35,727 nucleotides of DNA from a virus. The notes below the pieces were generated by a model. The model did no database searches. It worked only from the letters and a program-made list of their open reading frames with translations, and had not been told where the DNA came from. The stretch lies in IMG/VR virus record IMGVR_UViG_3300046475_000289. One strand, written 5' to 3'. This document shows, piece after piece, positions 12,964 through 33,453 of the stretch. The position numbers and the translations under genes are program-made. Position 1 is the first letter of the stretch; the number at the start of each line of letters is the position of its first letter.

Positions 12964-13221
12964 TTAGCGCTGGTGAGAGGTGACTCGTGTGGCGTTGGCG
13001 TCGAGGTGGCCTGGCAGCTGTTCCTCGGCGTCAACGCTCTTGGTGCTGGCCTGCGAGAGCAGGGCCTCGTCGAACTCGCGGATCGCGGTCTCCGGGTACA
13101 GGAAACGCCTCCCGACCTTCGCCCCCTTGGGGCCGTAGCCGATGTGCCGCCAGTACCGGATCGTGCTTGAAGCGGTGCGGTAGCGCTCCGCTACCTCCGC
13201 CGTCGTGAAGTAGTGCTGCAT
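12964..13221 (-). CDS. Excisionase/MerR-type HTH (HTH_17-like) DNA-binding protein; Cro-like early regulator or RDF/Xis candidate
   Basis: MQHYFTTAEVAERYRTASSTIRYWRHIGYGPKGAKVGRRFLYPETAIREF matches the excisionase-family HTH pattern; divergent from the XRE gene. Track start 13230 is a TTG; ATG at 13221 preferred. Confidence 0.7.
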   Translation of the reverse strand: MQHYFTTAEVAERYRTASSTIRYWRHIGYGPKGAKVGRRFLYPETAIREFDEALLSQASTKSVDAEEQLPGHLDANATRVTSHQR

Positions 13222-13322
13222 GCCGTTCAACCTCGTCAGGGATGGGCGAGGGAGCTTGGATCAGCCTCCTGATGCTGCTGAAGCATGCCAGCGCTTTCGC
13301 CACCCCGTCAACCTTGCTGGGG

Positions 13323-13351
13323 GTGACGCCGTCGCGTGTCGTCGCTACCAT
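13323..13351 (+). promoter_or_regulatory. Candidate sigma-70-type promoter for a leaderless repressor transcript
   Basis: GTGACG (13323-13328), 17-nt spacer, TACCAT (13346-13351), 8 nt to ATG 13360; no RBS precedes the ATG. Confidence 0.3.
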
Positions 13352-13359
13352 CGATCCTC

Positions 13360-14163
13360 ATGAAGGATGAGCGCAGTTCAACGCCAGCCAACGAACCCGA
13401 TCTGGATGCGGACGCCCTACGTGTGGCGTTGGGTCGCCGCATGAGGATGGCGAGGGTGAACCTAGGTCTCTCTCAACAGGCCGTAGCTGACGCGATGATG
13501 GGGCGCGGCTTCAGTTGGCGGCAGACCACGGTGGCCAAGACAGAGGCGGCCGATAGGCCGGCCCTTTTCACGGAAGTCGTGGCACTCTCATCGATTCTGA
13601 AGCGGGAGCTGAGCTATTTCCTAAGCGGGCGGACTGCGCTAGACGAGGTGAAGGAGGAGTTGCAACAACAGACGAACGATCTGAAGCATCAGATGGACCA
13701 CGCAAAGAGTCAGCTCGCCTACATCGAATCGAATCTAGCGAAAGCTGTCGTGGTTGAGGGGGTCATGCTGGCCATCGTTGAATTCTCTTACACGCTGGAC
13801 ACGTCACGGCTAAAGCAATCTTTCGAGGCTTTCTCGCAAAGCCGTGCGTTCGATGTTCCTTCGCTGAAGCGCGTGCTTGATGCCGCAGGAGTACCAGCCC
13901 ACCAGGTAGAAGAGGTGGATCAGATGGGGCTGACTCATGCGGCCCGAGAGGTAAAGGAGAAGGGGGTGACGGGCCCGAGCGAGTGGTTGCCGGGGTTCGG
14001 AGATAAGGAGATTCCTCTTTCGGCGGCGCACTACCTGGAAACAGGAAAGTCTCCTACCTACTTTCTCGACTACCTGCGTCGCCGTGAGACATACGTGAAC
14101 ACTGTGTGTCCGCTGCTAGTCGACGACGTCATCGACTGGGTCGAATCGAGGAATCATCCTTGA
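13360..14163 (+). CDS. XRE-family HTH protein with uncharacterised C-terminal domain; candidate prophage (CI-like) repressor
   Basis: LGRRMRMARVNLGLSQQAVADAMMGRGFSWRQTTVAKTEAADRPALFTEVVALSSIL is a classic HTH_XRE. Plus strand, between int and the early operon. Clearly lower GC and many A/T-ending and CTA codons. Alternative GTG start at 13336. Confidence 0.8.
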   Translation: MKDERSSTPANEPDLDADALRVALGRRMRMARVNLGLSQQAVADAMMGRGFSWRQTTVAKTEAADRPALFTEVVALSSILKRELSYFLSGRTALDEVKEELQQQTNDLKHQMDHAKSQLAYIESNLAKAVVVEGVMLAIVEFSYTLDTSRLKQSFEAFSQSRAFDVPSLKRVLDAAGVPAHQVEEVDQMGLTHAAREVKEKGVTGPSEWLPGFGDKEIPLSAAHYLETGKSPTYFLDYLRRRETYVNTVCPLLVDDVIDWVESRNHP

Positions 14164-15665
14164 GTGCTGCGCCTTTTCCATGCGAAATGCACAGCGTCGT
14201 AGTCGAAGTACCCGCCGTCGGGCATGCGCCCCGACCGCGGCTTGACCAGCGTGACGACGAGCGCCGCCCGCAGCACGTTGCGCTTCTGCTCCAGCAGCAA
14301 CGCCTTCCACGCCTTCCGCACATCCGGCGCGCCGACCAGGCCGACGAGCGGGTCCACCATCGCCGCACGCGCCAACTGGTGCGTCACCCCGTCGAGCTGC
14401 GCGCGGGCCGTCTCCATGCCCTCGGTGAACGGGCCCAGCTCCAACTGGCCCGCACCGAACAGACCGGCCAGGTCGGTCATCCGCCGGCGGATCCGCTCGC
14501 TCTCCGCCTGCAACCCGGCAACGTCCACGTCGTCCGGACCGGGCAGCAACAGGTCCTCCGCGTCGTCGCGTGACAGCCGCTCGACGATCGTGTCCTCGAC
14601 GTACTGGTCGACGACCTCGGCCCGCCGCCCGCCGCCGTGCCCGGTCGGACACTTGTAGCTCGGGTACTGCCGGCCACCGGACTGGGTCACCGTCATGCCC
14701 TGACCGCAGTCCCGGCCGCACAGGTACAGCAGCGAGCCCACCCACTTCGGCTGGGCCCCGCGGTTCGAGGTACGTGACGGGTCGGACAGGATCGCCACAA
14801 CGGCCCTGAACTTCTCCTCCGGGACGATCGGCGCCCACTGTCCGGGCCCGACCTCCTCGCCCCTGTAGACCGCGATCCCGGCGTTCCTCGGGCGCTTCAG
14901 CATGTCCCGCAGATCCTGGTGGGTGATCGCGTTCCCGCGGGTGGTGGTGAGCCCCTTGTCCGTGCACCACTTCACGCAGCTGCGGATGGACCCGCCGGAC
15001 AGGATGGTGTCCGTCCACTGCCGCAGCGCCTCGGCCTCCTCGGGCACGACCTTGTTCGTGTCGAGGACGGGCACCTCGAGTTCCTCGCCGGTCGCCCGGT
15101 CGACCCGCTTCTGCGTCTCCCCGGTGGGTACGCCCCAGCCGAACGGGCGGGTGCCGCCCGCCCATTCGCCGGCCATGGCCTTCTGCTGCCGGGCGCGGGC
15201 GACGCGGTGGCCCTTGTGCTCGGACTCCTGGCGGGCGACGGCGCCGAGGATCCGCGCGGTCATCCGCCCGGACGGCGTGGCGAGGTCGACGGTCCCGGCC
15301 TGCACGGTGTGCGTGGCGATGCCGCGGCGCTCGGACAGGGCGATGTACTTCTCCAGCTCCGTCGGGCTGCGGTGGAGCCGGTCGGTGTGCCAGGTGATGA
15401 CGATGGTGGCGGTGCCCTGCTCCAGGTCGTCGAGCATGCGCAGGTAGTCCTTGCGCTTCTTGCCGCTGTAGGCGGACACGTCGTTGTCGACGTACACCTC
15501 GACGACGTTCCAGCCGTTGCGTTCTGCGAGGGCTTCGCAGTCCTGGCGCTGTCGCTCGACGCCGAGGCCGGCGCCGGTGCGGTCCTGGCTGATGCGGCAG
15601 TAGATGACGGCGCGGGTCTTGGTGCCTGCGGCAACGTCGACGGCGGCGCGGAGAGTTGGGCTCAT
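14154..15665 (-). CDS. int: Large serine recombinase (phage integrase)
   Basis: ATG at 15665; resolvase domain AVIYCRISQDRTGAGLGVERQ (catalytic Ser), ITWHTDRLHRS, recombinase domain, zinc-ribbon CGRDCGQGMTV..YKCPTGHGG, coiled-coil C-terminus; 503 aa. Confidence 0.92.
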   Translation of the reverse strand: MSPTLRAAVDVAAGTKTRAVIYCRISQDRTGAGLGVERQRQDCEALAERNGWNVVEVYVDNDVSAYSGKKRKDYLRMLDDLEQGTATIVITWHTDRLHRSPTELEKYIALSERRGIATHTVQAGTVDLATPSGRMTARILGAVARQESEHKGHRVARARQQKAMAGEWAGGTRPFGWGVPTGETQKRVDRATGEELEVPVLDTNKVVPEEAEALRQWTDTILSGGSIRSCVKWCTDKGLTTTRGNAITHQDLRDMLKRPRNAGIAVYRGEEVGPGQWAPIVPEEKFRAVVAILSDPSRTSNRGAQPKWVGSLLYLCGRDCGQGMTVTQSGGRQYPSYKCPTGHGGGRRAEVVDQYVEDTIVERLSRDDAEDLLLPGPDDVDVAGLQAESERIRRRMTDLAGLFGAGQLELGPFTEGMETARAQLDGVTHQLARAAMVDPLVGLVGAPDVRKAWKALLLEQKRNVLRAALVVTLVKPRSGRMPDGGYFDYDAVHFAWKRRSTQG

Positions 15666-15684
15666 GCTCTGAGTCTGCACCCGT

Positions 15685-15738
15685 AGTGGTGTCACTGTCT
15701 CAGGTTCGGGAACCCCAATATGGCTTCGTGCCACCACT
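15685..15738. other. Candidate attP: 54-bp imperfect inverted repeat centred on AA/TT, 20 bp upstream of int
   Basis: Outer arms AGTGGTGtCAC (15685-15695) and GTGcCACCACT (15728-15738); inner TTCGGG-AA-CCCCAA. 17 of 27 positions are symmetric by hand alignment. Architecture resembles known serine-integrase attP sites. Confidence 0.4.
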
Positions 15739-15757
15739 GGAAAGATCTTGCTCGAAA

Positions 15758-15779
15758 GGGTGGGCATTGGTGCCCACCC
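15758..15779 (-). terminator. 9-bp perfect palindrome GGGTGGGCA-TTGG-TGCCCACCC (hairpin terminator, operator, or alternative attP core)
   Basis: Perfect arms at 15758-15766 and 15771-15779; on the minus strand it is followed by TTTCGAGC. Confidence 0.4.
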
Positions 15780-15857
15780 ATGCCCTTGACCTGCGCTTAT
15801 GTCGCCGATTTCCACAGCCTGTGGGCACGCCTTCGAATCCAAGGTTGGGTGCAAAAC

Positions 15858-15889
15858 GGCCCCGGCCGGATCGGCGTCCGGCCGGGGCC
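15858..15889 (-). terminator. Rho-independent terminator of the micro-ORF operon
   Basis: ggccccggccgga (15858-15870) pairs with tccggccggggcc (15877-15889), 6-nt loop, followed on the minus strand by GTTTTGC. Confidence 0.7.
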
Positions 15890-15934
15890 TGGTCCCGCCC
15901 GCCCCCAATGGGCACGGGGTACGGGGCGGGCGGT

Positions 15935-16075
15935 CTACCAGCTCTTGCGGCTGTACGCGTGCCAGTGCCTACCGCTGTGCCCGAACGGCAGGGTGCAGTG
16001 GTACCGGCCGCCCTGCCATTCGTTCCAGCAGTAGCCGCCGAGCCCGCGCTTACGAGGGAGGGACGAAAGGCTCAT
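15935..16075 (-). CDS. Cys/His/Trp-rich micro-protein X3 (46 aa)
   Basis: ATG at 16075 preceded by GCGAGGAGGCCTCG (strong RBS); MSLSSLPRKRGLGGYCWNEWQGGRYHCTLPFGHSGRHWHAYSRKSW; 41 of 46 codons end in G/C by hand count; ATGA overlap with X2. Confidence 0.65.
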   Translation of the reverse strand: MSLSSLPRKRGLGGYCWNEWQGGRYHCTLPFGHSGRHWHAYSRKSW

Positions 16076-16251
16076 CGAGGCCTCCTCGCGCAGGCGCTGC
16101 GACGGGACGCGGCGCGCCACTGTCGGCGCAGCGCTCCGGCCCGCGGGCACTCCCGTTCCGGAACCGTCCGGCACGAGGTGCAGGTCGAGCAGTGGGTGAG
16201 TAGCGCCCGGTACTCCACGGGCGCGAGTGGCTGTACGGATCGGGCGCTCAC
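16072..16251 (-). CDS. Cys-rich basic micro-protein X2 (59 aa)
   Basis: GTG at 16251 overlaps the X1 stop (GTGA); VSARSVQPLAPVEYRALLTHCSTCTSCRTVPERECPRAGALRRQWRAASRRSACARRPR; only the last 59 codons of track ORF 16072..16806 are taken as coding. Codon-position GC is ambiguous here. Confidence 0.4.
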   Translation of the reverse strand: MSARSVQPLAPVEYRALLTHCSTCTSCRTVPERECPRAGALRRQWRAASRRSACARRPR

Positions 16252-16424
16252 GGCCGGACCGCCTGGCGGAGCGGGAGGAGGTGGCGCTGCTCCCGGCACG
16301 GGGCGCACGCGCTGCCGCCCTCGACCGGGGCGGCGGTACCGGACGGGCCTCGGTGCCAGTCGCACCATCCGGTGTCCGGTGTCTGGTCTGTGCTGCGGGG
16401 CGGGGTATGCGTATCGTCGGTCAC
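16248..16424 (-). CDS. Cys-containing micro-protein X1 (58 aa), below the ORF-track length cutoff
   Basis: GTG at 16424 preceded by GGATGGAGTCGAC; hand translation VTDDTHTPPRSTDQTPDTGWCDWHRGPSGTAAPVEGGSACAPCREQRHLLPLRQAVRP, stop TGA at 16248-16250; high third-position GC. Confidence 0.5.
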   Translation of the reverse strand: MTDDTHTPPRSTDQTPDTGWCDWHRGPSGTAAPVEGGSACAPCREQRHLLPLRQAVRP

Positions 16425-16497
16425 GTCGACTCCATCCAGTCGGCCGAGCCCGGGGTCGGTGACACGGCCGCCGGGGTTTTCTGTGTTCGCAGCGTAG

Positions 16498-16521
16498 CCC
16501 TAGGTAGCTAGGGTAGCTAGG
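16498..16521. promoter_or_regulatory. CTAG-rich operator-like element in the divergent X1 / GntR-like intergenic region
   Basis: CCCTAG-GTAG-CTAGGG near-palindrome (16498-16513, 14 of 16 symmetric) overlapping the tandem 9-mers GGTAGCTAG GGTAGCTAG (16503-16520); a fourth CTAG lies at 16563-16566. Confidence 0.5.
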
Positions 16522-16576
16522 CGTGTCAGGCAATCTCGTCTCGCCGGGTAGGCCTGTCCTGCCTAGCGTCGAGATC

Positions 16577-16813
16577 ATGGACTGGAAGCCGGACATCCCG
16601 CGGTGGCGACAGGTGTACGAGGTGATCGAGGCGCGGATCGCGGACGGAACGTATCCGCCGGGCGAGCAGCTGCCGGGCGTGCTGGCCCTGCACGGCGAGT
16701 TCGGGATCGCGCAGATGACCGCCCGCCGGGTGCTCTCCGAGCTGAGGGACGCGGGCCTCGCACAGATGCAGCCGGGCATCGGCACGTTCGTCACCGAGCT
16801 GCCCAAGCCGTAA
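16577..16813 (+). CDS. Stand-alone GntR-type winged-HTH protein (78 aa, no effector domain)
   Basis: RQVYEVIEARIADGTYPPGEQLPGVLALHGEFGIAQMTARRVLSELRDAGLAQMQPGIGTFV fits the GntR N-terminal domain pattern; alternative GTG start at 16523. Confidence 0.75.
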   Translation: MDWKPDIPRWRQVYEVIEARIADGTYPPGEQLPGVLALHGEFGIAQMTARRVLSELRDAGLAQMQPGIGTFVTELPKP

Positions 16814-16814
16814 G

Positions 16815-16838
16815 GGGGTACTCACTGACGAGTACCCC
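16815..16838 (+). terminator. 9-bp hairpin directly after the GntR-like stop
   Basis: ggggtactc (16815-16823) pairs with gagtacccc (16830-16838); 6-nt loop. Confidence 0.45.
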
Positions 16839-16851
16839 TGGACGCACGAAA

Positions 16852-16883
16852 GCGGCCCCGCCCTCCGAAGAGGGCGGGGCCGC
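16852..16883. terminator. Bidirectional terminator between the convergent late operon and the GntR-like gene
   Basis: gcggccccgccctc (16852-16865) pairs with gagggcggggccgc (16870-16883), CGAA tetraloop; on the minus strand it is followed by TTTCGTG, immediately after the stop at 16886. Confidence 0.75.
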
Positions 16884-16885
16884 GG

Positions 16886-17152
16886 TCATCGTGCGAAGAG
16901 GGCGACGGCGCCGGTCGCCGCGCCAGCGACACCGGCGAGGACGCCGATGGTGGGCAGTGGCCATCGGGCTTTTTCCAGCGTGCGGATGCGGGCCTCGTGG
17001 TCAGCGACGTCCTTGCCGACGTCGTTGAGACCCTGCCCGATGCCATCGAGCTTGGTCTCCACCCGGGTCAGGCCATCGCTCAGGGATCTCAGCTCCTGGT
17101 ACATCTGCGTGTTGCTGATGTAGACGCCCGGGTCCGGGACCGGGGCGCCCAT
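16886..17152 (-). CDS. Tail-anchored coiled-coil membrane protein (88 aa), lysis-cassette accessory (holin/spanin-like role possible)
   Basis: Coiled-coil-like N-terminus and C-terminal TM WPLPTIGVLAGVAGAATGAVALFA; last gene of the late operon. Confidence 0.6.
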   Translation of the reverse strand: MGAPVPDPGVYISNTQMYQELRSLSDGLTRVETKLDGIGQGLNDVGKDVADHEARIRTLEKARWPLPTIGVLAGVAGAATGAVALFAR

Positions 17153-31923: not shown

Positions 31924-33453
31924 TCACCACACGCTCAGCAGGATGTCGCCCGGCGGCTCGACCTCGGCGCCGAGCCCCCACTTCGCGAGGGTCGAGGCGA
32001 CGAGCGGGCTGATGTCGACGTTCACTCCGCGCCGGGCCCACGCCCACGCATCGCCGAGCGGCCGCTTCTGCGCGCCCGCCAGCGCCGTCGCGAGGGGCGC
32101 CTGGTCGAGGTGACTGAGGGTCTGCTCGGTGACCGCGTCGTACAACTGGCCGCAGGCCGACGCGATCTCACGCGCCTTCGGCTGGACCACCTCGACGCCC
32201 AGGCGCTGCTGCAGCTGCTCGATGACGGACCCGGCCGGGCCGCCGCCGTCGACCACCCAGCACTTCGGCTTCCACCGCTTGTGGAGTTCCTCCGCCCGCT
32301 CCAGCAGCCAGCCCGTACCGGGCCGGTGCTCGACCACCTCGACGTGCGTGCCGCCCCGCCAGGCGCCCGCCACGGCGATCGCCGCGTGCGAGCGCTCCGG
32401 GGTCATGTCGATCGCGAACGCGACCAGGCCCTCCGGTGCGGAGGCCGCGTCCGCCAGTGCCCGCCACACGTCCTCGCCGATGACCTGCCACGTGTCCGCC
32501 GTGTCCGACGGATACACGCCCACACCGAGCCGCTCACGGGAGAACAGGGTGTCGCCCAGCGTCAGCCGCTCGTTCCCCGACTTCTCCAGCGTCAGCCGGT
32601 AGCCGATCGCCGGGTTGGCTCTCAGGATCGACTCGGCGTCCGCCACGTCGTCGTGCTCCGTACAGCCCTGCCCGCACTCGTCACGGTGCTCGTTGATCGA
32701 CCACTCGAAGTAGGCGAGCGTCGGATCCGGCACGCCGGTCTCGGCCGAGGCGAGGGCCCGGCGCCGTACCCGTCCCAGCTGTACGGACTGGTGGCCGATG
32801 CCCGCGCTGCCCAGGTACCAGGTCTGCGGGTTGGCGACCGCGGCCAGCGTCGGCGCGAGGGCCGCCATGGCGTCGTCGCCGAGGATCATGTCCTCGTCGA
32901 GGATCACGCAGTCGGCGGTGAAGCCGCGGCCGGAGCCGCCGGAGCGGGCGATGAACCGCAGCTCCTGCCCGGAGTGCAGCTCGATGGCCTCGTCACCCAC
33001 GGTTTTGCGGTAGATCTTCACGCGTTTGTGCAGGTCAGGGCATGCGCGGATCAGGTTCTCGATCCGCTTGTACGCGTTCTTCGCCGTCTTGAACTCGTGG
33101 GCGGAGTGCAAGATCAGGCGCTCGCCACCGATGAACAGGCCCCAGAGTTCCCTGGCTTCGATGATCCCGCCCTTGCCGTTCTGCCTCGGCACGTTGACGC
33201 ACACCTCGGGCGCCGCCCAGTTGCCGTCCGCGCGCTCGCCCATGCCCTGATCGAGGACGTGCTGCTGCCACGGATCGAGCAGCAGCCCGGCACGGGCCGC
33301 CAGGTCGACGGCCTCCTGGCCCGCGCTCGACAGCGCCGTGCCCGGCACGGTGAACACCCGGGGGCGCTGACGGCCGTACACGGGGCCCTCAGCCACCGGC
33401 AGCGCGCTCTTGTGCAGCGGCTCGGCGCTTCTTTCGCTGCTCAGCAATGTCAT
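31924..33453 (-). CDS. terL: Terminase large subunit
   Basis: PRQNGKGG Walker A-like, VILDEDM Walker B, C-terminal nuclease region; alternative GTG start at 33396 (8-nt overlap with TerS). Confidence 0.9.
   Translation of the reverse strand: MTLLSSERSAEPLHKSALPVAEGPVYGRQRPRVFTVPGTALSSAGQEAVDLAARAGLLLDPWQQHVLDQGMGERADGNWAAPEVCVNVPRQNGKGGIIEARELWGLFIGGERLILHSAHEFKTAKNAYKRIENLIRACPDLHKRVKIYRKTVGDEAIELHSGQELRFIARSGGSGRGFTADCVILDEDMILGDDAMAALAPTLAAVANPQTWYLGSAGIGHQSVQLGRVRRRALASAETGVPDPTLAYFEWSINEHRDECGQGCTEHDDVADAESILRANPAIGYRLTLEKSGNERLTLGDTLFSRERLGVGVYPSDTADTWQVIGEDVWRALADAASAPEGLVAFAIDMTPERSHAAIAVAGAWRGGTHVEVVEHRPGTGWLLERAEELHKRWKPKCWVVDGGGPAGSVIEQLQQRLGVEVVQPKAREIASACGQLYDAVTEQTLSHLDQAPLATALAGAQKRPLGDAWAWARRGVNVDISPLVASTLAKWGLGAEVEPPGDILLSVW

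Follow-up and report, generated by a model that had tools for sequence, protein, structure and literature searches.

A modular family of overlapping Cys/His-rich mini-genes with a predicted antisense RNA in temperate phages of Streptomyces

Three short open reading frames (ORFs), X1, X2 and X3, lie end to end on the minus strand of the IMG/VR virus record IMGVR_UViG_3300046475_000289, a stretch of 35,727 nucleotides that is referred to here in its entirety as the window. These ORFs are three separate genes under selection that form a working operon, not a frameshifted pseudogene, and they belong to an unnamed modular family found in temperate phages, prophages and linear plasmids of Streptomyces. 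The leader of the operon is probably the gene of a cis-antisense RNA, as judged from its conservation and strand asymmetry. Small phage genes beside the phage attachment site (attP) are a frequent site of lysogenic conversion, immunity and defence functions, and genes below about 60 codons in DNA of 70% GC are often missed. The ORFs themselves are ordinary in kind, being small phage proteins with zinc-type motifs; it is their combinatorial, always-overlapping architecture that is unusual.

An initial sequence-only reading of the window had described three consecutive small ORFs in three frames linked by stop/start overlaps, and the description was borne out. X1, X2 and X3 (coordinates in Table 1) occupy three different frames, with a GTGA overlap at the X1/X2 junction and an ATGA overlap at the X2/X3 junction. 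The signals reported in that reading were also recovered: GGATGGAG precedes X1, GAGGAGG stands 6 nt ahead of X3, and a terminator with a GTTTTG tail lies at 15858-15889; the upstream signal of X2 is a weak AGGCGG only. In a plot of GC content at third codon positions (GC3) along the locus, which the same reading had proposed as a check, the frame shifts exactly at both junctions, favouring coding. The codon-position GC signal of X2 is the weakest of the three (GC3 0.80, second-position GC 0.75).

Conservation was assessed in nine loci, comprising the window, a Streptomyces chromosome (L002, strain NBC_00554), three integrated prophages (L005 in strain NPDC096311, L010 in NPDC056738 and L011 in NPDC127595) and four metagenomic or viral contigs (L007, L008, L013 and L014). 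All nine, which diverge at up to about 60% of synonymous sites, retain the three ORFs and an RTGA overlap at both junctions. Ratios of nonsynonymous to synonymous divergence (dN/dS) in close pairs were 0.43 for X1 (against L007), 0.2-0.45 for X2 and 0.16-0.41 for X3, indicating purifying selection on each ORF, which is clearest for X2 despite its having the poorest composition signal. Database searches with each peptide, likewise proposed beforehand, returned homologues that are free-standing ORFs of similar length and belong to no named family, and the gene callers of public assemblies annotate these homologues as separate ORFs of 46-76 residues. In the protein collection searched, an identical called protein was present for X3 alone among the three ORFs of this contig. 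A single uninterrupted ORF in homologues had been named as the finding that would speak against three genes; in the window lineage the split is kept in all nine loci, and fused relatives exist elsewhere.

X1 is a member of a gene family, here termed gene A, for which an exhaustive profile search of 1.84 billion representatives recovered 139 cluster representatives at E <= 1e-3, mostly of 58-75 residues, and for which a scan of viral contigs gave 44 loci. Gene A also has a homologue in seven deposited Streptomyces phages (Piccadilly, Eklok, Ignacio, HFrancette, AxeJC, Eastland and Cumberbatch), where it is gp26/27 and annotated as hypothetical (E = 9e-7 by tblastn against Ignacio); X2 and X3 gave no tblastn match in 50,697 phage records. 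Cassette types were assigned by walking downstream from gene A in 66 loci. The order is a constant A, followed by one of three mutually unrelated middle modules, B1 (the type of X2), B2 (the type of Piccadilly gp27) or B3, and then by C1 (the type of X3), C2 or nothing. The types counted were A-B2-C1 (14 loci), A-B1-C1 (12), A-B1 (10), A-B3-C2 (10), A-B2-C2 (4), A-B3 (4), A-C1 (3) and A-B1-C2 (1), and the remaining 8 loci have A alone or with other partners. Adjacent genes overlap at 99 of the 99 junctions counted, by 4 nt in 90 and by 7 nt in 9. Since every junction is a stop/start overlap, ribosomes entering at A are probably passed on to the downstream genes. Natural fusions were found in the combinations A-B1 (in L043, the plasmid copy L069, P0018, P0029, P0059 and P0116), A-B2, A-B2-B1, A-C2, A-A and B1-like-A, which suggests that the modules act together rather than that the copy in the window is degenerate. 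Literature searches found no description of the cassette.

Several departures from the common pattern were observed within the family. In L011 (8164-8323) the third gene is swapped for an unrelated small C2 gene (MICARCDxPI...H..LC) with the 4-nt overlap and the downstream double hairpin retained, so that recombination seems to fall exactly at gene boundaries; replacement by C2 was noted also at L017-L019, L024 and L038. X1 of the window lineage (window, L007 and L016) is without about 10 central residues (the '...VLVDAIERNSGP..LY' segment) that are present in nearly all gene A proteins, and retains the four ligands. In P0127 and P0107, gene A is fused behind other domains, one of them DUF6415 (E = 5e-6) and the other an unassigned N-terminal domain of about 140 residues.

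In alignments, conservation is higher over the approximately 74 nt before the X1 start than over the ORFs. A covariance model built on this leader, R1, scored 80 bits (E = 7e-18) in the window and matched 38 of 50 sources, once per locus and always directly ahead of gene A, with no other match better than E = 0.04 in 520 kb; searches of both strands of 15600-16900 against Rfam gave chance-level matches only. RNAalifold on a MAFFT alignment of the leaders recovered just 4 pairs, owing to a register shift in four sequences, and the structure was instead assessed with a hand-drawn structure and with per-sequence folds. The z-score of the minimum free energy (MFE) of the sense-strand leader was not significant (-0.57). 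The main hairpin, HP1, is a GC hairpin of 10-11 bp with 92% of cells paired over 32 distinct leaders in the hand-drawn structure, and two of its pairs covary, from G-C to C-G in 13 sequences and from G-C to A-U in 5 (score reached by 0 of 500 shuffles).

HP1 is asymmetric with respect to strand. A terminator scan independently flagged 16456-16474 on the plus strand, followed by GGTTTTCTGT, and the U-rich tail was found on the antisense side only, where it has a mean of 5.8 T per 12 nt against a window average of 1.6 (6 T is reached by 0.23% of the 12-mers of the window). The antisense strand gives the more stable HP1 in 29 of 32 leaders. Nine leaders have an HP1 position that is mismatched (A.C) when read on the sense strand and paired (G.U) when read on the other, and the reverse holds in three leaders of one lineage. 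A candidate antisense -10 hexamer, TAnnnT, is hidden within gene A itself, at exactly +8 to +13 in all 32 distinct loci against a background of 0.00034 per position (TAGGCT in 17, TAGTGT in 5, TAGTCT in 4, TATCGT in 3, and three further variants in one locus apiece). Three features of the codons of gene A produce the hexamer: codon 4 always ends in T (CCT, ACT, GAT, CAT or CTT; GAT in X1), codon 3 always has A as its second base, and codon 5 always reads ACN; codon 4 keeps its T although its residue varies (P, T, D, H or L) and although GC3 is about 0.9. The strand asymmetry of HP1, the U-rich tail and the hidden TAnnnT are the reasons for which the function of the leader is placed on the strand opposite the cassette.

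The RNA predicted between hexamer and terminator would be fully complementary to the X1 start codon, its Shine-Dalgarno (SD) sequence and the whole 5' untranslated region (UTR). Its predicted fold consists of two stem-loops followed by UUUUCUGUGUU, with the anti-SD loop CCAUCC in the first of them, and has an MFE of -30.3 kcal/mol at 54% of the ensemble. On the sense strand a second hairpin, HP2, is predicted in nearly all 32 leaders, with its stem kept in two main classes (CGACU/AGUCG and CGCUU/GAGCG). An SD-bearing HP2 that faces an anti-SD loop would be the arrangement expected for loop-loop recognition. Further upstream, a sense TAnnnT lies 14-30 nt (mostly 18-28 nt) ahead of HP1 in 29 of 32 distinct leaders, against the same background per position, so the sense and antisense transcripts would overlap over the whole 5' UTR.

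Table 1. Positions of the cassette genes, leader elements and flanking features in the window
Feature	Position	Strand	Remarks
X1 (gene A)	16424-16248	minus	GTG start; 58 residues; isoelectric point (pI) 6.2; constant head gene
X2 (module B1)	16251-16072	minus	GTG start; 59 residues; pI 11.5
X3 (module C1)	16075-15935	minus	ATG start; 46 residues; pI 10.2
Conserved 74-nt element	16416-16489	minus	5' UTR of X1 or antisense RNA gene
HP1 (16449-16476) and U-rich tract (16477-16486)	16449-16486	plus	predicted intrinsic terminator on the strand opposite the cassette
HP2	16427-16442	minus	5 bp, CGACU/AGUCG; SD of X1 in loop and 3' arm
Antisense -10 hexamer, TATCGT	16412-16417	plus	predicted; in codons 3-5 of X1
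Predicted cis-antisense small RNA	16424-16486	plus	about 60 nt; start near 16424; bounded by hexamer and terminator
Sense -10-like hexamer, TACGCT	16491-16496	minus	putative cassette promoter
Tandem 9-bp repeats, GGTAGCTAG twice	16503-16520	.	CTAGCTACC on minus strand; over -35 region of cassette promoter
TAGCGT, -10-like hexamer	16563-16568	plus	8 nt ahead of GntR ATG
GntR-family regulator	16577-16813	plus	helix-turn-helix (HTH) only; 78 residues; divergent from cassette; Pfam GntR E = 2e-16
Operon terminator, hairpins 15890-15940 and 15858-15889	15858-15940	minus	two GC-rich hairpins, then GUUUUG
Large serine integrase	14154-15656	minus	Pfam Resolvase 7e-31, Recombinase 2e-11

Each module type has four invariant Cys/His positions of its own, and the Cys and His residues pointed out in the sequence-only reading as looking zinc-binding fall in these invariant columns, with a four-ligand motif of zinc type in each of X1, X2 and X3. 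Gene A has the motif C-x2-H...C-x2-C within the conserved signature WCxWH...ACxPCREQ, with C21 and C43 invariant and H24 and C40 present in at least 90% of 106 family members; X1 thereby carries the two-knuckle pattern of a zinc ribbon, C-x2-[CH]...C-x2-C. The invariant motif of B1 is H-x3-C-x2-C-x(8-14)-C (the last spacer is x7 in X2 itself), of which H-x3-C-x2-C is invariant across 20 B1 sequences, fused ones counted. X3 has YCW-x9-C-x5-H-x3-H, and the C1 family C-x10-C-x5-H-x3-H. From these motifs we infer that X1-X3 bind zinc. X2 and X3 are strongly basic and X1 is not, and no hydrophobic segment was apparent in any of the three on inspection by eye. AlphaFold2 modelled X2 as three helices at a predicted local distance difference test (pLDDT) score of 60 and X1 at a pLDDT of 50, both from shallow alignments.

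Scans of X1-X3, their relatives and all six module types against Pfam, PHROGs, NCBIfam and PADLOC gave nothing significant, in agreement with the earlier statement that the peptides match no recognised family. In PADLOC-DB, X1, X2 and X3 had no match, and one homologue had a chance-level match to ThsB (E = 0.034). Neither sequence nor profile searches of the PDB with the alignments of A, B and C returned a match below E = 0.037, and those with gene A profiles gave nothing below E = 0.5. Sub-threshold Pfam matches of gene A members were scattered (Zn_ribbon_FGT1_1 in 4 of 106, GRF in 1 of 106), and the GRF zinc finger was rejected as the identity of gene A on account of this single sub-threshold match.

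The zinc-binding anti-sigma (ZAS) domain (Pfam zf-HC2, PF13490) was likewise considered for X2 and rejected on its profile, its ligand topology and the absence of a sigma gene. X2 and the B1 family resemble ZAS in having an H-x3-C-x2-C signature at a helix-turn-helix junction, and one relative reads AHLAECPAC. ZAS proteins such as RsrA and ChrR have one more Cys/His ligand some 25 residues ahead of the motif, and a cognate extracytoplasmic function (ECF) sigma gene next door. In the B1 family, by contrast, no conserved Cys or His lies upstream of the motif and the fourth invariant Cys lies 8-14 residues downstream, and no sigma-factor family was found among the scanned or listed neighbour genes. 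X2 had no match to zf-HC2 at E <= 1, and the best relative, the L066 B protein, reached E = 0.041 and 14.4 bits (cut-off 22.2) over 9 residues.

The tandem repeats over the -35 region of the putative cassette promoter look like operators of the divergent GntR gene. Loci with other GntR sequence types have different tandem repeats at the same place (CTATCGCAC twice, GGTAGTA twice or GCGGTAAGG twice). As the sequence-only reading had proposed, a GntR-like gene shares this divergent regulatory region (Table 1). Its mechanically called ORF begins at GTG 16523; homologues begin at the methionine of MDW(K/Q)P, which corresponds to ATG 16577, and the placement of the TAGCGT hexamer would then yield a leaderless GntR mRNA. 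At the other end of the operon, the pair of terminator hairpins has a folding energy of -65.6 kcal/mol (z = -4.4, 0 of 200 shuffles as good), and L007, L002, L005 and L011 share a conserved terminator sequence, which persists where another module has taken the place of gene C. This trailer after the last gene (GGGGCGGGCGGGACCAGGCCCCGG...; 15858-15940 in the window) is conserved at the nucleotide level between the window, L002, L005, L007 and L011, in which the proteins are only 30-60% identical, and its conservation seems to exceed the apparent need of a terminator. The stretch that separates the terminators of the cassette from the start of the integrase contains, at 15758-15779, a perfect 9-bp inverted repeat, GGGTGGGCA-TTGG-TGCCCACCC, with an inverted repeat of different sequence at the matching position in L007; it could be the attP core or an additional terminator.

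The sequence-only reading had placed the cassette between the lysis genes and attP/int, and this was upheld: genes for an Amidase_2 endolysin and holin-like proteins lie upstream, the integrase lies downstream, and the 278 bp that separate X3 from int are the expected site of attP. The cassette is inserted between lysis genes and attP/int in unrelated phage backbones. Having its own terminator and, by prediction from sequence, its own promoter, and lying between conserved modules, it is built as a moron-type unit is. In most contigs that are long enough an integrase lies 0.03-1.3 kb downstream, of serine type on either strand or of tyrosine type. In the three integrated prophages L005, L010 and L011 the cassette is followed at 0.2-0.8 kb by a tRNA gene, and no integrase intervenes, so that the cassette is the last outward-facing unit, at the prophage end opposite int. 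Copies are also present on large linear Streptomyces plasmids, behind a DUF6879-HTH pair.

Regulator genes are near-constant neighbours. Among 27 representative upstream neighbours, Pfam assigned 22 (14 GntR, 6 HTH_31, of which 3 with DUF5753, and 2 DUF6879), the two DUF6879 neighbours coming from operons that also encode an HTH_31/DUF5753-type regulator; by our own count, a regulator-type neighbour (GntR, HTH_31/DUF5753 or DUF6879 operon) is present in 24 of 27. The GntR neighbours are almost all HTH-only and divergent, with 69-126 residues as mechanical ORFs and very diverse sequences. In L002 (7906-9548), L005 (7937-9571) and L069 (3296-4874), the adjoining operon was seen to encode a protein of about 85 residues without a family, a DUF6879 protein and an HTH_31/DUF5753 protein, and in L014 a DUF397 (BldB-type) gene follows the cassette.

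We slightly favour an interpretation of the cassette as an operon of three zinc mini-proteins that is gated by a repressor and an antisense RNA, translationally coupled, and active as an anti-regulator. The divergent HTH-only GntR protein would bind the tandem repeats over the -35 region and repress or otherwise control the cassette promoter. The antisense RNA, some 60 nt long, would start from the TAnnnT in codons 3-5 of X1, end at HP1 and its U-tract, and pair with the X1 5' UTR, SD sequence and start codon, blocking initiation at X1; such a block would silence all three genes because X2 and X3 are coupled to ribosomes arriving from X1. The mini-proteins may then act jointly, as a small multi-zinc-finger assembly that binds protein or nucleic acid and is not catalytic, which is the weakest step of the proposal. 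A role as binding proteins in a small complex is favoured because their size is too small, and their likeness to any enzyme or membrane effector too slight, for catalysis. Since regulator genes are such constant neighbours and the negative control is so heavy, our foremost guess is an anti-regulator under tight gating, of the antirepressor or of the anti-XRE/anti-sigma kind. The repressor-like neighbour with operator-like repeats, the predicted antisense RNA and the SD hairpin suggest an operon that is off by default, and the assumption of the sequence-only reading that the genes are expressed from the prophage is, if anything, weakened by these control elements.

Several observations weigh against this interpretation. 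The antisense RNA and both promoters are predictions from sequence conservation, an E. coli-type sigma-70 scan found no promoter at the locus, and no good -35 for the antisense promoter was seen by eye. Of the extra stability of HP1 on the antisense strand, about 2 kcal/mol reflects nearest-neighbour energies and is found in perfect stems as well, and the three leaders of one lineage favour the sense-strand HP1. The leader motif is missing from loci in which another gene of the run precedes A (Piccadilly and those related to it) and from loci in which A follows HTH_31 in tandem, so the RNA layer belongs to 'A-first' operons and not to gene A itself. The types of B and C are uncorrelated with the type of integrase or of GntR. 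Zinc binding is read from the motifs, the AlphaFold2 models being poor (pLDDT 50 and 60), a Foldseek search of the X2 model against the PDB gave zero matches, and nothing points to a target of the mini-proteins.

Alternatives were considered for the genes, for the leader and for the position of the cassette. A frameshift-broken single gene, or non-coding DNA with chance ORFs, would fit the fused A-B relatives and the weak codon-position signal of X2; it is refuted because the nine loci keep the split into three ORFs with RTGA junctions, and purifying selection on each ORF and the separate ORFs of public gene callers leave it scarcely credible. The 74-nt element might instead be sense-only, with no antisense RNA, either as a DNA operator or as a structured 5' UTR that stabilises the mRNA or serves as a translational operator, to which protein A may bind. 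HP1 and HP2 form in the mRNA too, leader and gene A always travel together, the three leaders mentioned above favour the sense strand, and an inverted repeat could be a protein-binding site; left unexplained are the T that always closes codon 4 together with the A at +8 and +13, the confinement of the U-rich tract to the opposite strand, and the nine A.C mismatches that turn into G.U on the antisense strand, and we consider the sense-only element quite unlikely. Some recombination directionality factors of serine integrases are small proteins encoded beside int, and the window, like most contigs of sufficient length, has the cassette next to attP/int. Such a role, or another accessory function for the neighbouring integrase, is nevertheless most improbable because the cassette is not tied to one integrase family: a given cassette type may be found beside a serine integrase of either orientation or beside an integrase of tyrosine type. 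Plasmid copies, moreover, lie beside regulators with no integrase within 5-kb flanks, and integrated copies have the cassette at the prophage end opposite int.

As to what the proteins do, a type I toxin-antitoxin-like or abortive-infection module would make one or more of the mini-proteins harmful and the antisense RNA their antitoxin, serving prophage stabilisation or the killing of infected cells. An antisense RNA over the start of the first cistron combined with translational coupling is the design of hok/mok/sok, and the several layers of negative control, the location at a prophage end, the plasmid copies and the combinatorial shuffling of variable modules, as in arms-race loci, all agree with it; but the proteins are soluble-looking, Cys/His-rich and basic, with no hydrophobic helix, no match to a nuclease-like family and no PADLOC match, and we hold this module to be unlikely. 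The broader suggestion of the sequence-only reading, an exclusion or defence system, found no positive support, there being no PADLOC match and no enzyme or membrane effector; a defence or conversion role is possible but unsupported. The mini-proteins might also be host-modulating partners of WhiJ-like/XRE regulators, taking the part of the small DUF397 (BldB-type) proteins beside XRE-DUF5753 regulators and changing how the lysogen develops or makes antibiotics. Several loci have A directly after an HTH_31 regulator of about 280 residues or beside a DUF6879 and HTH_31/DUF5753 operon, DUF397 genes are found after the cassette (L014) or in its vicinity (L069), and small-partner/XRE pairs with fusions as evidence of cooperation are documented for BldB/WhiJ (PMC10294661, PMC10364602). 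This is distinctly improbable all the same, given that the proteins have no sequence relation to DUF397, that the neighbour in most loci, the window included, is a GntR HTH and not XRE-DUF5753, and that no A-HTH fusion occurs among 20 longer representatives of the 139.

Three further candidates were rejected: a ribosomally synthesised and post-translationally modified peptide precursor (no modifying enzymes among the neighbours examined), an arbitrium-like peptide signal next to the HTH-tetratricopeptide-repeat-like gp24 of Piccadilly (no signal peptide in the small proteins by eye), and a relationship to IosA (a 15-kDa protein whose paper mentions neither zinc nor cysteines).

The preferred reading, a gated anti-regulator operon, has its nearest parallel in design in the immI region of phage P22, described as an 'ant moron', in which two repressors and the antisense RNA sar control ant (PMC2629481). 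Like immI (mnt / arc-ant with sar), the cassette is an accessory unit at the end of the late region, has a small repressor gene divergent from a small operon, and would have a short cis-antisense RNA opposing the translation start, with tight control in several layers. The proteins are unrelated: the regulator here is a winged-helix GntR protein and not a ribbon-helix-helix protein, and three Cys/His mini-proteins of 46-59 residues stand in place of a 300-residue antirepressor. An antirepressor function of the cassette is a guess. In hok/mok/sok, the antisense RNA targets the initiation region of an upstream frame, on which the downstream product depends through translational coupling. The cassette resembles it in its predicted antisense RNA at the start of the upstream frame and in the dependence of downstream genes by coupling, and differs in that Hok is a membrane toxin, whereas the proteins here are soluble-looking, carry zinc motifs and are accompanied by a putative protein repressor.

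Gp25-gp28 of the seven deposited phages contain true homologues, with gp26/27 being gene A at 54-60% identity and the next gene of B2 type. As in the cassette, these are runs of small Cys-rich genes with 4-nt overlaps between an HTH gene and a serine integrase. Unlike in the window, gene A stands second there, behind a Cys protein of 50 residues, and no leader/antisense motif is present; the partner modules differ, and no deposited phage has a homologue of X2 or X3. XRE-DUF397 systems (WhiJ/BldB, Scr1/Scr2) have a small partner beside an HTH_31/DUF5753 regulator, paralogues shuffled on mobile DNA and fusions taken as evidence of cooperation (PMC10294661, PMC10364602, PMC6262351). Some cassette loci share with them the small protein next to such a regulator, the shuffling and the fusions; the cassette differs in lacking a DUF397 domain, in its Cys/His modules of zinc type, in having GntR as the commonest neighbour and in the predicted antisense RNA layer.

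The window looks like a temperate phage genome of 35.7 kb that is transcribed almost wholly on the minus strand. Its large terminase (31924-33453, minus strand) shares no more than 42% identity with its counterpart in any deposited phage, the best matches being in Arthrobacter and Rhodococcus phages, so that the window phage has no close cultured relative. On the far side of the integrase, a plus-strand ORF of 275 residues (13336-14163) has a GC3 of 0.67 against about 0.9 elsewhere and an N-terminus like an XRE-type HTH, with no match in Pfam; it is convergent with int and divergent from an HTH_17 (Xis/MerR-like) gene at 12964-13230 (minus strand). This ORF is likely the phage repressor, and the pair likely the immunity switch.

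The analysis shows the three small ORFs to be real and places them in a family of about 140 clusters for which Pfam, PHROGs, NCBIfam and PADLOC have no model. By analogy, the cassette may be viewed as a regulated accessory operon of immI or of type I toxin-antitoxin design. It is a tentative idea, and one we would rate as doubtful, that it represents a new accessory class in which a constant A with swappable B/C specificity subunits, gated by an antisense RNA and a mini-GntR, disables a host or phage regulator or is toxic; candidate targets would be a repressor, a WhiJ-type XRE protein or a sigma factor. If true, this would give Streptomyces phages an immI-like second switch, or be the first type I toxin-antitoxin-like module with a zinc-finger effector. 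To our knowledge, no described Streptomyces phage combines a repressor, an antisense RNA hidden in the codons of the first gene and translational coupling. If confirmed, the leader would be a new antisense RNA family and a clean case of a promoter constraining codon choice, and the cassette would offer a handle on mix-and-match zinc mini-proteins in lysogens of antibiotic-producing bacteria.

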